From the NCBI GenBank assembly GCA_016208875.1, contig JACQXD010000159.1, positions 1-40,337 on the forward strand: a stretch of DNA of 40,337 nucleotides, written 5' to 3'. The notes beneath the pieces were generated by a model. It saw only the letters and a program-made list of their open reading frames with translations. It had not been told where the DNA came from and ran no database searches. Numbering within the stretch: the stretch's first letter is position 1; each line of letters opens with the position of its first letter. Position numbers and translations under genes: made by a program. The DNA comes from Nitrospirota bacterium (GTDB taxonomy: Bacteria; Nitrospirota; Thermodesulfovibrionia; Thermodesulfovibrionales; UBA1546). This document shows, one piece after another, positions 17,652-40,337 of the stretch.

Positions 17652-17738
17652 CCCCTCTTTGGCAAAGAGGGGCGAGGGGAGATTTTATGAATCCATTTAT
17701 CTATAAAATCCCCCTTTATCCCCCTTTTCCAAAGGGGG
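17652..17738. repeat. Inverted doublet of C-run/G-run hairpin elements (REPIN-like, no cargo gene)
   Basis: CCCCTCTTTGGCAAAGAGGGGCGAGGGGAGATTTT ... AAAATCCCCCTTTATCCCCCTTTTCCAAAGGGGG between ftsX and envC. Confidence 0.85.
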
Positions 17739-17769
17739 AATATGATTCTTTTCCATTTGCATTTTACAA

Positions 17770-18648
17770 TTAACTAAACCGTATTCTCCCCAGTGCTACA
17801 ACGGCACCGCATATGCCGAGTAACAGACCGGTAAAAGGGAGAGCGATAAATATCTCGGATGGAAATACGATGACCTTCAGTATGGGCATTGTGAGGACGA
17901 GCTTATAAAAAAAGGCGTAATAAAATGCAATCGCACCGAACATACCGACTACACCTCCTCCGGCGCCGAGCATCCCTCCTTCTATAACAAAAGGCGCCCT
18001 TATAAAACCCTTTGTTGCACCAAGCAGCTTAAAAGTCTCTATCTCTTCTTTTCTCCGGTAAAACATAATCTTTACCGTGCTGTAACAAACAAAGATAATT
18101 CCGGTAGACATTAAAACAACCATTAACATACTGATGGTCTGCGCACCGGTTCTTATAGAATGCATCGAGTTTAGGAATTGTTCGCCGTATTCCACCTCGT
18201 CGATGCCCTTTATCTTTCCGATATCCGCTGCAAGTTTTTTTACGCCAGAAATGCTGACCGATTCATGTTTAAGTCTCAGTTCTATCGAAGCGGGGAGGGG
18301 ATTTTCATCTATGCCTTCAAGGACATAGTCTGCATTTTTTAGAACCCCTCTAAGTTCTTCCATTGCCCTATCCTTGGAGATGAACTTTACATGCTCGACC
18401 ATGCTATTTTTTTTTAATACTGCTATTATATTTCCCCTGTCCTGCTCCGATACCCTATCGTTCAGGTATAGTGTCATCGAGAATTTCTCGGGGAGTTTTT
18501 TTGTTGCAAGGTCTATGTTATAAACGGAAAAAAATGTAAGCGTAATCATAAAAAGTCCTGCCGCTATTGTCAATATTGAGAGGAGGTTTATCCACTTTTC
18601 ACGCCATACGCTCTGAACGGCAAGCCTCAACGAATATAACATATACAT
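17770..18648 (-). CDS. ftsX: Cell division permease FtsX
   Basis: NPLPAS and RRKEEIETFKLLGATKGFIRAPFVIEG motifs; coupled to ftsE. Confidence 0.92.
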   Translation of the reverse strand: MYMLYSLRLAVQSVWREKWINLLSILTIAAGLFMITLTFFSVYNIDLATKKLPEKFSMTLYLNDRVSEQDRGNIIAVLKKNSMVEHVKFISKDRAMEELRGVLKNADYVLEGIDENPLPASIELRLKHESVSISGVKKLAADIGKIKGIDEVEYGEQFLNSMHSIRTGAQTISMLMVVLMSTGIIFVCYSTVKIMFYRRKEEIETFKLLGATKGFIRAPFVIEGGMLGAGGGVVGMFGAIAFYYAFFYKLVLTMPILKVIVFPSEIFIALPFTGLLLGICGAVVALGRIRFS

Positions 18649-19310
18649 CAGCCTATCTCCTCGCCGACGAGGTTTCCGTTATCGAGCCTGAATACCTTTC
18701 TCCCTGTATTCCTGAAGGATTCCCTGTTATGTGTGGCGATAATGACCGTTGTCCCTTTTGCATTTATATCCTTGAACATCCGCGTAATCCCTGCAGCAGT
18801 GTCTGAGTCAAGATTTCCGGTAGGTTCATCGGCCAACAGGATTGTCGGCTCTCCTACAATTGCACGTGCAATAACAACTCTCTGCTGTTCTCCGCCTGAA
18901 AGTGTCTTCGGGAAACCATCGGTCTTATGTCTGAGATTCACTGTCTTTAATATCTCCATGACCCTTTCCTTTACTTCGTATTCCCCTATCCCTCGTATTC
19001 TCAGTGCCATGGCGACATTGTCAAACACATTTCTGTTGTCGAGGAGCCTGAAGTCCTGAAATACCACACCGATATTTCTTCTCAAAAACGGAATGCTCGA
19101 TTCTTTAATCTTGCCGAGTTCCCAATCCGCTATAGTTATACTGCCCTCATCAGGTTTTTCAGAAAGGTAGATAATTTTAAGGAGTGTTGATTTCCCTGCA
19201 CCGCTGGGCCCGGTAATAAAGGCCATATCCCCCTTTTCGACAGAGAAGGTTATATTTCTCAGCGCGGTCTGGTGATCATAAAACTTTGATACGTTCTCAA
19301 AATGTATCAT
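18648..19310 (-). CDS. ftsE: Cell division ATP-binding protein FtsE
   Basis: GPSGAGKST, VVFQDFRLL, LSGGEQQR, ADEPTGNLD. Confidence 0.95.
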   Translation of the reverse strand: MIHFENVSKFYDHQTALRNITFSVEKGDMAFITGPSGAGKSTLLKIIYLSEKPDEGSITIADWELGKIKESSIPFLRRNIGVVFQDFRLLDNRNVFDNVAMALRIRGIGEYEVKERVMEILKTVNLRHKTDGFPKTLSGGEQQRVVIARAIVGEPTILLADEPTGNLDSDTAAGITRMFKDINAKGTTVIIATHNRESFRNTGRKVFRLDNGNLVGEEIG

Positions 19311-19321
19311 CTAATAAATTT

Positions 19322-19384
19322 GTGTCTGTGTCAGTGATTAGTGTCAGTAAAAAAATACTGTCACCGGTTACTGTCACTGACACT
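19322..19384. repeat. Inverted pair of 6-bp arrays (CAGTGW / WCACTG)
   Basis: gtgtctgtgtcagtgattagtgtcagta ... tactgtcaccggttactgtcactgacact. Confidence 0.65.
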
Positions 19385-37820: not shown

Positions 37821-39521
37821 ATGAGAATATCTCCGGTCTTATATCTCGTTCTATGGTTTTTATGTACTCTGGCGCCTTCCGTATATGCTGCGGACTGTAC
37901 AACGACAGTCGCTTTGGATGAAAGTATACAGACGGCCATAGATAGTTCATCTTCGGGCAGCACGATCTGTATAGAGCAGGGGACATACTATGAGCAGATA
38001 ACCTTGAAGGAAGGGATCACTGTAAAGGGGCTTGAAACGGCGAGGACGGTAATTGACGGAAGTGGAAGCGGAACAGTAGTGACCGGGGCCAAATCGGCAA
38101 GCATTGTCAATATAACCATAACGGATGGTTCTACAGGGATAAGCCTGACAAATATAACCGGTTTTACTATAAAAAATGTGGTTGTCAACGGCAACAGCAC
38201 AGGAATCAACTGTGATGCCTCGTCAGGTACGATCGAAAACTCGGTTATAAACGGAAATAGTACCACAGCAATAAGCCTGAGTAATCAACCCACTATAACC
38301 ATATCCAACACGATCCTTTCTGATAATGAAACCGATATAACCACCGGGGCATCGTCCGACATGGATGGGTTAACGTTGGAGACAAACCTTTTATACAATA
38401 ATACTACCTCCAATTATCCTTCAAGCGACACTACGAGTATTACAGGAGATCCGAAATTCGTTGATACATCTTCTAACGATTTTCATCTCCAAAGCGGATC
38501 CCCGGCCATTGACTCAGGAACCGGTTCAGACCCTGATGGTACGACTGCGGATATAGGCGTATACGGAGGGTCCGATATGGATCAGACCATCTTCCGCATC
38601 GGGAGTATTACCGTCGAAAAAGTTGATACTACATCAATGAACGTAACATGGTCGACGAATGCTGCATACAACATCACGGGATATAAAATATATTTTGATT
38701 ATGACGGCTCCGGCGAATCGTATAACGGGACCTCGGCCGAGGGAGCATCGCCTATAGACGTAGGGAATGTAACAAGCATTACACTTACAAATTTATCCGG
38801 ATATGCAATCGTAGCCCCGGATGGTCTCTCTGTCGGATTTGGAGACAGGAGATTATATATTTCATGGAATGCGGTCTCAGGGGCATCCGGATATTATCTC
38901 TATTACGGAACTTCTTCCGGCAGCTATGGAACCCCCATCGATGTAGGGAATCAGACGTCTCATACCCTTGAAAACCTCACCAATAATACTACTTATTATA
39001 TCGCTGTATCGGCATACTTTACGTCCACTTATTATGCATCGGTATCCGCTTATGATAATTACGGCCACGAGAGTGAATTGCTTAATGAGGCAATCGCGGA
39101 ACTATCCTCAAAGGCGGAGGGGCCGAAATCGGGCGAGAAGAGCGACTACCCCGAAGAAAGTAGCTTTTTCCCGCATCTCAAGGATACAAACATGTGTTTC
39201 ATAGCTACGGCAGCATATGGTTCGGGCATGGAACCGGAGGTTATGCTGCTGCGAAAATTCAGAGACCGGTTTCTTCTTACCAATACGGTTGGAAGGGTAT
39301 TTGTATCCGGCTATTATACCCTAAGTCCGCCTATCGCCTCTTTCATCAGAGACCATGAAGCGATCAAACCGGTTATCAGGTGTGCACTGATCCCTTTCAT
39401 CTGGACTGCAAAGATATACCTCGGTACGTCATCCGGATGGATGATAACTATCTTATTGTTGATCCTGCTTTCCTCAGCGTATCTCGGTTTGTATCGGTGG
39501 AAACGGAGGAAGACAAATTGA
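37821..39521 (+). CDS. Secreted beta-helix plus fibronectin III protein with CFI-box-CTERM
   Basis: Signal peptide, SIQTAID beta-helix cap, [14 protein letters not shown]3-like [25 protein letters not shown]...LRKFRD...YYTLSP, TM and basic tail. Confidence 0.88.
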
Positions 39522-40156
39522 AACATAAATATTTCATATTCATAATAGCTATTACCATCTTCTTTGCTGCCGGATATCCTGTTTCTGCCGAATCTCCCCG
39601 ATGGTCATTAGGTCTAAGGGGAGGATCTTTAAAATCAGAAATCGTAGGATGGGAAGATCATTATCACCATAAAGGTAGCGGGCTTTTCGGGATAGAGGCA
39701 GGGTGGAAACCGTTCAGACAGGCAGAACTGAATATTGACGTCTCATATTCCTCTGCAAAGGGCAGCGCAATAACCCAGAGCGGGAGGACAAGCAGCGACA
39801 CCGTGACATTCACACAAATACCGGTACACCTTTCTCTTCTCTTCAGGCTTGCGTTTTTAGAAAACCAGATTGTGGTCCCGTATGCCGGTGGAGGATATTC
39901 TTGCGTTGCTTACAGGGAGAGGCTGAACGGAGAAACCGTATCGGGCGGTATGTCGGGTTACCATGTTAAAGGAGGTCTGCAGTTCCTCCTCGACATACTT
40001 GAGCCCGAAGTGGCAAAGGATTTCTACGATAGCTGGCACGTTTCCAATACCTACCTTTTTATCGAGATCATGTCATCGAAAGTGGATAATTTCGGGAAGG
40101 AAAATATTGACCTGGGCGGGCGCTCTATTATGGGCGGGTTGTTGTTCGAGTTTTAA
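39518..40156 (+). CDS. Outer-membrane beta-barrel protein (resembles MXAN_2562 family)
   Basis: TTG start behind GGAGG overlapping the upstream stop; signal peptide; [24 protein letters not shown]-terminal GLLFEF barrel signal. Confidence 0.75.
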
Positions 40157-40236
40157 GCCATTAATATCAGAAGAAACATTTCGAATCTATACATTAAAAA
40201 AATGGTTCTTTTTCATATTGAGTGGGTAGTCTTAAG

Positions 40237-40270
40237 TTCCCCTCTAAAAAGAGGGGTGCAGGGGTGTGTT
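40237..40270 (+). repeat. C-run/G-run hairpin unit directly upstream of a DUF559-like start
   Basis: TTCCCCTCTAAAAAGAGGGGTGCAGGGGTGTGTT, near-identical to 33009-33043. Confidence 0.85.
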
Positions 40271-40274
40271 TATA

Positions 40275-40337
40275 ATGAAAAGAATACAATATAATCCAAA
40301 GCTGAAAGAAGCAGCCAGGCGTTTATGAAACAATAGT
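40275..40337 (+). pseudogene. 5' end of a DUF559-like endonuclease gene with premature TGA (runs off the window)
   Basis: MKRIQYNPKLKEAARRL*NNS resembles the YNPKLKxxARxLRxNxT start of DUF559 proteins; TGA at 40326 falls at the conserved Arg. Confidence 0.65.

Follow-up and report, generated by a model that had tools for sequence, protein, structure and literature searches.

The window analysed here is the 40,337-nucleotide (nt) contig JACQXD010000159.1 of a Nitrospirota bacterium, which is contig C79 of a 2.93-Mb, 248-contig assembly (GCA_016208875.1; G000 in our genome set). It carries short GC-rich hairpins with G-rich or C-rich tails, two of which enclose an internally deleted gene of the DUF559 family. 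Comparison with the rest of this genome and with other genomes identified these hairpins as the borders of a small cassette of about 0.4 to 0.45 kb. From 5' to 3', the cassette comprises an outer GC hairpin (about 21 to 25 nt), a spacer of 2 to 4 nt, a G-rich tail of 7 to 12 nt, a DUF559 open reading frame (ORF) for a Vsr-like PD-(D/E)XK protein, a C-tail complementary to the G-tail, a second spacer, and a second hairpin. The hairpin-bounded DUF559 cassette is a coherent, widespread, and selected unit, since its ends match each other, homology stops at the feet of the hairpins, purifying selection acts on the ORF, and one orthologous site is found both with and without the cassette.

Cassette remnants in the window

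The internally deleted cassette occupies positions 27106 to 27344 of the window (+ strand). Its left unit (27106 to 27135) is a hairpin (27106 to 27126) followed by a G-rich tail, and its right unit (27314 to 27344) is a C-rich tail starting at 27314 followed by a hairpin with one mismatch (27323 to 27344). Between them lies an ORF of 46 codons plus stop (27149 to 27289, + strand), of which the coding part (27149 to 27286) matches the DUF559 profile PF04480 at profile positions 65 to 102 of 109 (E 1.6e-6; 28.4 bits for a gathering cut-off of 20.6); comparison with the DUF559 copy on contig C21 reveals the internal deletion. The first-pass annotation of the window had already described two inverted units around an internally deleted DUF559-like ORF, and this description is confirmed. 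Its reading did not include the outer terminal repeats that surround both this cassette and the one starting at 40239.

The deleted cassette is nested in a 340-bp carrier (27029 to 27368). The left outer terminal inverted repeat of the carrier (27029 to 27053, + strand) aligns with the ends of an ISL3 insertion sequence (IS), and the same sequence opens the C21 copy, the flanks upstream being different. The right outer terminal inverted repeat (27343 to 27368, + strand) is common to copies on C21, C155, C196, and C30, which diverge immediately after it. The element is flanked by a perfect 8-bp target-site duplication, AAAATTTA, with its left copy at 27021 to 27028 and its right copy at 27369 to 27376 (+ strand), the last base of which is the A of the ATG of the ORF at 27376 to 28356. 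Contigs from four DNA runs of one study, compared with window positions 9000 to 28900, gave many repeat-driven joints and no clean joint across the 27029-27368 element or the other units, and are uninformative on excision.

A second carrier starts at the window end with an ISL3-type left outer terminal inverted repeat (40204 to 40228, + strand) and runs off the window; it is 100% identical over 137 nt to a complete, internally deleted copy on C125. Inside it, a left cassette unit (40239 to 40269, + strand; hairpin at 40239 to 40256, then G-tail) precedes an ATG at 40275 that opens a 17-codon stub ending in TGA (40275 to 40328, + strand). The hairpin, G-tail, and ATG proposed earlier from position 40237 are thus in place. 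As for the DUF559-like nature of the stub, BLASTP against a full DUF559 protein was not significant (E 11), and the alignment to a profile of 15 DUF559 proteins, in register at positions 1 to 22, scored only 6.7 bits, the stub ranking first in a set made of itself and 1000 shuffles. This weak alignment suggests that the stub may be a DUF559 N terminus.

The pair at 17652 to 17738 (+ strand) consists of a left hairpin (17652 to 17672) with a G-tail reaching 17681 and a right C-tail with a hairpin at 17720 to 17738. It is predicted to fold into three stems, i.e., the left hairpin, a tail-to-tail stem, and the right hairpin (z -6.2). Reading both units upheld the inverted pair, but not its earlier designation as an empty form: between the two units, all that is left is an ATG together with ~16 nt from the 3' end of the cassette, which marks the pair as a gutted cassette and not as a site that was never loaded.

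Three further blocks complete the set. A solo palindromic unit carrying both tails, with no strand assigned, lies at 9736 to 9782 (C-tail, hairpin at 9751 to 9769, and G-tail; fold -17.5 kcal/mol, z -4.9), and a second solo unit, likewise without strand, lies at 20321 to 20369 (z -4.9); the latter is of the subtype found beside intact DUF559 genes of relatives (loci L023, L025, and L034). At 32967 to 33042 (+ strand), a composite block joins a right-type unit (C-tail and hairpin at 32983 to 33003) to a left-type unit (hairpin at 33011 to 33028 and G-tail; z -3.9 for the fold), and the genome contains multiple copies of a longer version of it with three hairpins. Only decayed cassette members occur in the window: the deleted cassette at 27106, the gutted pair at 17652, both solo units, the composite block, and the stub. 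Inverted heptamer tandem arrays border the first solo unit at about 9702 to 9733 and 9783 to 9823; TTGTCTC tandem repeats follow the second one, with a heptamer array at 20377 to 20407.

Altogether, seven distinct hairpins were counted in the window (at 9751, 17652, 17720, 20333, 27106, 33011, and 40239). The pattern CCCCYYT-N4-12-ARRGGGG has 10 matches against 0.07 expected, and 10 was reached in 0 of 100 shuffles. Folding as a hairpin is predicted at every place that the first-pass annotation had listed (z -2.3 to -6.2), but the single hairpin family that it proposed splits into several subfamilies. Three arrangements recur: left units (hairpin and then G-tail), right units (C-tail and then hairpin), and solo units (both tails). 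Intrinsic terminators were rejected as an explanation, as no T-run directly follows the hairpins, which instead have a spacer and a G-run behind them or a C-run in front; integron attC arrays and chance were likewise rejected from the sequence. No Rfam family matched the hairpins at gathering score in the window and three cassette loci scanned, the sole match there being a tRNA gene at 11750 to 11822 (- strand, 67.6 bits).

Hairpins and DUF559 genes across the genome

A genome-wide finder based on perfect 7-bp C-rich stems detected 727 hairpins in the genome versus 0 in a shuffle, and 1199 versus 17 when one mismatch was allowed. The 727 hairpins comprise 327 with only a G-tail, 270 with only a C-tail, 99 with both tails, and 31 with none. 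Sixty-three pairs face inward at 20 to 60 nt, including the gutted pair of the window, and 102 are outward and adjacent, less than 20 nt apart. On these pair counts, the hairpins resemble repetitive extragenic palindromic (REP) sequences, that is, short palindromes forming inverted doublets and dispersed mostly between genes.

PF04480 has 12 matches in the genome, of which only the one on C29 spans most of the profile (positions 16 to 107 of 109). Contig ends are reached by eight of the 12 matches, indicating that the DUF559 gene is a multicopy repeat that breaks the assembly. Every one of the 12 lies within 44 nt of a hairpin, compared with 6.5% of random 150-nt intervals within 100 nt of one. 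The finder itself flags nine of these adjacent matches; the other three escape it because they bear the same sequence on the opposite strand, outside its pyrimidine-only rule. DUF559 genes are thus closer to these hairpins than chance predicts, as the first-pass annotation had supposed, and the loaded, internally deleted, gutted, and solo forms are all present.

The same annotation had named a flanked REP-associated tyrosine transposase (RAYT) or IS200 transposase elsewhere as a competing explanation of the spread of the repeats. The Y1_Tnp profile PF01797 has eight matches in this assembly, at seven loci, and C-run/G-run hairpins flank none of the seven. At C240:445-951, a RAYT-like gene has on each side three copies of a different REP (GGGTTCAGGTTTGTAACCTGAACCC type) and represents a REP system apart from these hairpins. 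On C207 and C201, other short tandem repeats flank four proteins of ~320 amino acids with a Y1_Tnp domain.

The cassette in other genomes

Fourteen of 31 related genomes have a DUF559 match, and 16 full-length DUF559 loci were found among them. By eye, 15 of these 16 loci have a hairpin and G-tail just before the start codon and a C-tail and hairpin at or after the stop codon. A broader scan, using one genome per species and a three-sequence alignment as the query, returned 80 loci in Alpha- and Gammaproteobacteria, Chloroflexi, Nitrospirota, Desulfobacterota, Acidobacteriota, and other groups. Among the 74 loci with both flanks available, 52 have a hairpin upstream, 60 downstream, 48 on both sides, and 10 on neither, for a background of 61 hairpins in 156,054 nt of the same loci (0.063 per 160 nt). 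The tails face the gene in 40/49 cases upstream and 40/49 downstream, compared with only 7/49 and 5/49 on the outer sides. Moreover, the two ends of a locus resemble each other: the left arm is identical to the right arm in 57% of 53 loci (13% of random pairs), and 60% (versus 23%) show perfect 7-nt complementarity between the tails. The adjacency in this genome, the oriented layout in 48 of 74 loci, and the matching left and right units bear out the earlier proposal that hairpins and DUF559 form one unit. The accompanying idea that repeat subtypes are matched to nuclease subtypes holds in direction but is weak in the broad sample: protein identity is 0.557 for same-arm loci versus 0.538, a difference reached by 1 of 2000 label permutations among loci that, being related, are not independent.

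Nucleotide homology between cassettes in unrelated contexts extends over only about 410 to 435 nt. It ends at the feet of the hairpins in loci L050, L061, and L088 and in the paralogs L100 and L113 of one metagenome-assembled genome, and no outer repeats or duplications were seen around these five cassettes. Such cassette-only homology was found across phyla. The DUF559 ORF is under purifying selection, with dN/dS values of 0.07 to 0.18 in all eight unsaturated pairs (four further pairs were saturated). The cassette protein matches the solved DUF559 structure 3HRL (E 3e-17), and residues D52, E63, D65, and H69 (L026 numbering), which by analogy with Vsr we take to be catalytic, are invariant in 15 aligned intact relatives.

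Low dN/dS values would also be expected if DUF559 were an ordinary host repair or defence nuclease of the Vsr-like kind proposed for Caulobacter VsrA, adjoined by unrelated REP-like palindromes gathered in the same intergenic regions, and in passages of one report, a Caulobacter DUF559 protein elicits a DNA damage response without a cytosine methyltransferase (PMC12907096). We disfavour this explanation as very improbable, since the arrangement is orientation specific, the left and right ends of a locus are alike, homology confined to the cassette crosses phyla, and the hairpin background of the same loci is so low.

The occupancy of one cassette site was compared between species. The genes on either side of the L054 cassette, at a position upstream of a dnaG-like gene, are syntenic in 41 Sphingomonas genomes. 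The gap at this site is 0 to 9 nt in genomes G044, G064, and G051 and 53 to 103 nt in four more, and a DUF559-matching segment is present in at least 14 of the 41 genomes by hand count. The empty sites hold no hairpin. The cassette is therefore polymorphic for presence and absence at one orthologous site. In genome G060, it takes up all the space from a stop codon to the GTG start of the next gene, and the G-arm of its right hairpin lies 5 nt before this GTG.

The G060 arrangement is one of several observations consistent with a role at the RNA level, by which the 5' hairpin and G-tail would serve as mRNA stabiliser or ribosome-binding site and the C-tail and 3' hairpin as anti-Shine-Dalgarno or 3' stabiliser of a promoterless gene dependent on host read-through, mobility being incidental and due to host recombination or carrier transposons. 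The G-tails do resemble Shine-Dalgarno sequences, as noted in the first-pass annotation: the tail lies 13 nt before the ATG in the 27106 cassette and 5 nt before it in the 40239 cassette, and it lies 5 to 13 nt before it in the window and most same-family relatives. Furthermore, stems covary between subfamilies, loops vary, and copies of the 'sub B' element described below are all co-oriented with the downstream gene (11/11). However, anything between 8 and 92 nt separates the left hairpin from the start of the match in the broad set, hundreds of units are free of any gene, some of them within coding regions, and homology units end exactly at the hairpins. Neighbouring genes of the broad set are co-oriented in 44/63 cases upstream and 42/63 downstream; at about 70% on either side, this proportion does not exceed what is common among bacterial neighbours and is uninformative. 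An RNA-level role thus appears improbable as the general explanation.

Hairpin numbers and the presence of the gene were compared across genomes. The relaxed pattern CCCCYY-N3-14-RRGGGG has 1054 matches in G000 versus 57 in a control and 154 versus 2 in Sphingomonas sanguinis. The relatives with a cassette-type gene are all hairpin rich, and the hairpin-poor genomes all lack it.

Among 72,556 plasmid records, 46 hold a relative, mostly on large replicons, with no sign of plasmid enrichment. The Sinorhizobium meliloti pSymB and Azospirillum plasmid records label the gene only as a DUF559 or endonuclease domain protein. The pSymB gene (L167) stands between inverted doublets of ~110 nt (right unit, spacer, left unit) at locus positions 220 to 350 and 820 to 950, the spacers of which are reverse complements of each other. 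Rhizobial intergenic repeats have been annotated with function unknown, according to the part of the source available to us (PMC2573895), and the L167 doublets may correspond to these repeats.

Carriers of the copies in this genome

The copies in this genome have multiplied mainly as passengers of other non-autonomous elements. The first type of carrier has ISL3-like ends. The complete copy of the window-end element on C125 is flanked by a TTAATAAT duplication and interrupts a repeat of which uninterrupted paralogous copies exist elsewhere in the genome, and the near-intact DUF559 gene on C29 has the same terminal repeats as this element. In ungapped alignment, the carrier ends share with both ends of the ISL3 IS on C157 the motifs GG(C/T)TCTT at positions 1 to 7 and (G/A)AGTGGGTA at positions 17 to 25, the ends of the 27029 element being more diverged. 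Neither the 27029-27368 element nor the C125 and C29 elements encode a transposase of their own, and two of them have 8-bp duplications. At C157:850-925, 13 nt separate the ISL3 IS from the G-tail of the left unit before it, and the C125 element follows another G-tail at a distance of 14 nt; such AT-rich positions behind G-tails may be preferred by ISL3-type elements.

The second carrier, 'sub B', holds a fourth DUF559 subfamily and has GGTAATGTCAAAAGTT ends, of which at least 18 left and 13 right ones were recognised by eye among 41 pattern matches. Duplications of 7 to 8 bp flank the three complete or near-complete copies examined, and an identical deletion junction occurs at three loci (C134, C172, and C231). 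A GGAGG-like, Shine-Dalgarno-like motif lies 12 to 15 nt past the right end in 11/11 flanks versus 1.6% of random positions, and the downstream gene is co-oriented in each case (e.g., C30:1-140, C201:1-140, and C43:8714-8952); two of the 11 motifs are hairpin G-tails and not gene starts. From these flanks, 'sub B' insertion looks aimed at Shine-Dalgarno-like DNA. In the relative G016 (L159; C111:1047-1656), 'sub B' outer ends enclose a Y1_Tnp-like ORF (PF01797, E 2.4e-7) with its own inverted hairpins, which argues that one carrier takes different selfish cargo in different genomes. No IS256-type transposase (PF00872) that could partner the GGTAATGTCAAAAGTT ends was detected in the assembly.

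The third carrier accounts for the commonest gutted pair, whose 96 core matches are the middle of an IS200/IS605-like miniature inverted-repeat transposable element (MITE), e.g., at C11:11640-11990. The hairpins at its two ends point in the same direction, have CAGAGA loops, and resemble the hairpins next to the IS200-like gene of C155. This MITE shows many left-internal deletions, and 47 contig ends are due to it. Altogether, the sharing of one deletion junction by several loci, the terminal repeats, and the duplications indicate movement in trans.

Solo units

Solo units with both tails number 99 in the genome. One of them (C21:6660-6710, L164) interrupts a DUF559 gene between its FYCP and ELDGGQH motifs. 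In addition, 82 of the 727 hairpins fall deep within long open frames (250 codons or more), with no fewer than 80 codons on either side; among them are in-frame solo units inside the GATase domain match of GuaA and inside the CarB and FolC proteins. Solo units thus insert on their own. Moreover, simple deletion of a cassette cannot yield them, as their tails stand on both outer sides. In-frame units were seen at C198:2877-4454 (L161), C241:5383-6723 (L160), C226:8994-10601 (L162), and others, and they are translated as Pro-rich and then Gly-rich stretches of ~16 residues.

A model for the hairpin-bounded cassette

We slightly favour a model in which a small selfish DUF559 cassette has the hairpins as its terminal inverted repeats, the copies in this genome being carried by other elements and the nuclease acting on its own ends. 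The DUF559 nuclease would act at or beside its hairpin-plus-tail ends, and the resulting nick or cut could provoke copying of the cassette into new sites, either in a homing-like manner or by excision and insertion, with the G-tail possibly doubling as the ribosome-binding site of the cassette. In this genome, the carriers are the ISL3-type elements with terminal inverted repeats (with their 8-bp duplications and an ISL3 IS of the same end signature on C157), the GGTAATGTCAAAAGTT-ended element, and the 96-copy IS200/IS605-like MITE. The first-pass annotation had spoken of a REP-like element driven by or carrying DUF559: the carrying is borne out, whereas the driving is unproven, given the ends borrowed from other elements, the deleted copies moved in trans, and the scarcity of hairpins near DUF559.

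Several observations weigh against this model. A fully intact DUF559 gene is absent from the assembly, as the C29 gene lacks about 25 N-terminal residues and the multicopy 'sub B' gene is broken at contig ends. The automatic finder catches both sides in only 4 of the 16 full-length loci of the relatives, because predicted ORF ends run on through the downstream hairpin, and the 10 broad-set loci mentioned above are hairpin free by the strict finder. Some relatives are hairpin rich without a detectable DUF559 gene (G010, 250 matches; G013, 374; G011, 124; and G030, 142), so that hairpins persist or spread without DUF559 or, alternatively, the gene is unassembled there. Conversely, a complete Dehalococcoidia genome has one cassette and no further hairpins of its type. 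Finally, 8-bp target duplications are what ISL3 elements make, and the ISL3 copy on C157 has no clean duplication of its own.

One rival is a REP/RAYT-like system, in which DUF559 would be the dedicated enzyme moving all hairpin members, including the solo units inside genes. Such a system would account for a layout that resembles a RAYT gene between inverted REPs, for purifying selection on the ORF, for the independent insertion of solo units into the C21 gene and deep within other frames, for the lack of these hairpins around Y1_Tnp genes, and for the hairpin-poor relatives all being without a cassette-type gene. However, it accords poorly with the small share of hairpins (eight of 727) that have a DUF559 match within 600 nt, the lack of a fully intact gene in this assembly, the at least four hairpin-rich relatives without a match, and the genome with a cassette but no solo units of its type. 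Moreover, the copies here bear the ends and target duplications of other elements, and the both-sided tails of the solo units are not derivable by simple cassette deletion. We consider such a system unlikely.

Going beyond the model of a selfish cassette with carried copies, DUF559 could be the sole enzyme of a new class of minimal autonomous elements (~0.43 kb), cutting its own ends, copying the cassette, and seeding solo units, including those in frame in essential genes. This proposal is tentative, and we would not expect it to hold. If true, the DUF559 system might account for long-known orphan repeats, such as those beside the S. meliloti pSymB DUF559 gene.

PF04480 is a large family without a settled role, and the conserved, oriented hairpin ends provide it with a concrete and testable substrate. 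If the nuclease acts on these ends, the cassette would represent a second nuclease-plus-palindrome system beside REP/RAYT and would be among the smallest self-contained mobile units. It would also help to explain the GC-rich palindromes that break metagenome assemblies and the Pro/Gly-rich insertions in predicted proteins. For annotation, the C-terminal tails picked up by DUF559 ORFs are read-through into the right hairpin.

Comparison with known systems

The closest parallels in layout are the REP and REPIN sequences mobilised with RAYT genes, which are also short, GC-rich, dispersed palindromes, often in inverted doublets, with a small nuclease gene between inverted repeat copies. They differ in their enzyme, an HUH tyrosine transposase instead of a Vsr-like PD-(D/E)XK nuclease, and in their GTAG head, in place of which the present units have G- or C-tails. 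Rickettsia palindromic elements are short palindromic repeats that insert in frame into protein genes, as the solo units do here, and the Correia elements of Neisseria are also short palindromic repeats; we know of no nuclease gene associated with either, and their sequences are, to our knowledge, unrelated. Integron cassettes are small, promoterless, and bounded by hairpin-forming attC sites and, in these respects, resemble the present cassettes, which are instead single and scattered, without an integrase array, and have much shorter hairpins on both sides of the gene.

No description of a hairpin-bounded DUF559 cassette was found in the searchable literature. Neither flanking repeats nor mobility of DUF559 genes was found in titles, abstracts, and passages of the DUF559 literature (supplements being outside this scope), and the search for work joining RAYT with Vsr, or very short patch repair with palindromic repeats, returned nothing relevant. 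Three described systems share components with the cassette. In Caulobacter, VsrA is a DUF559 protein that causes DNA damage and is described as a mismatch-repair-type enzyme; together with Vsr and 3HRL, it belongs to the same protein family, with a nuclease able to damage DNA, and flanking repeats or mobility do not feature in the passages of that report (PMC12907096). I-Bth0305I, according to the passages available, is a Vsr-like (EDxHD) homing endonuclease with an N-terminal NUMOD DNA-binding region, encoded in a group I intron (PMC3239194). It has in common with the cassette a Vsr-like catalytic fold in a selfish gene and presence or absence at a site; the DUF559 protein studied here, of about 115 to 125 amino acids, is free-standing and hairpin bounded, and its target cleavage has not been described in the literature covered. 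Lastly, ISL3 elements and MITEs with passenger genes, such as ISPpu12a in the part of the source available (PMC4133298), recall the ISL3-type terminal repeats of the 27029-27368, C125, and C29 elements, with the difference that the passenger here is itself bounded by hairpins and lives in other phyla without any outer repeats.

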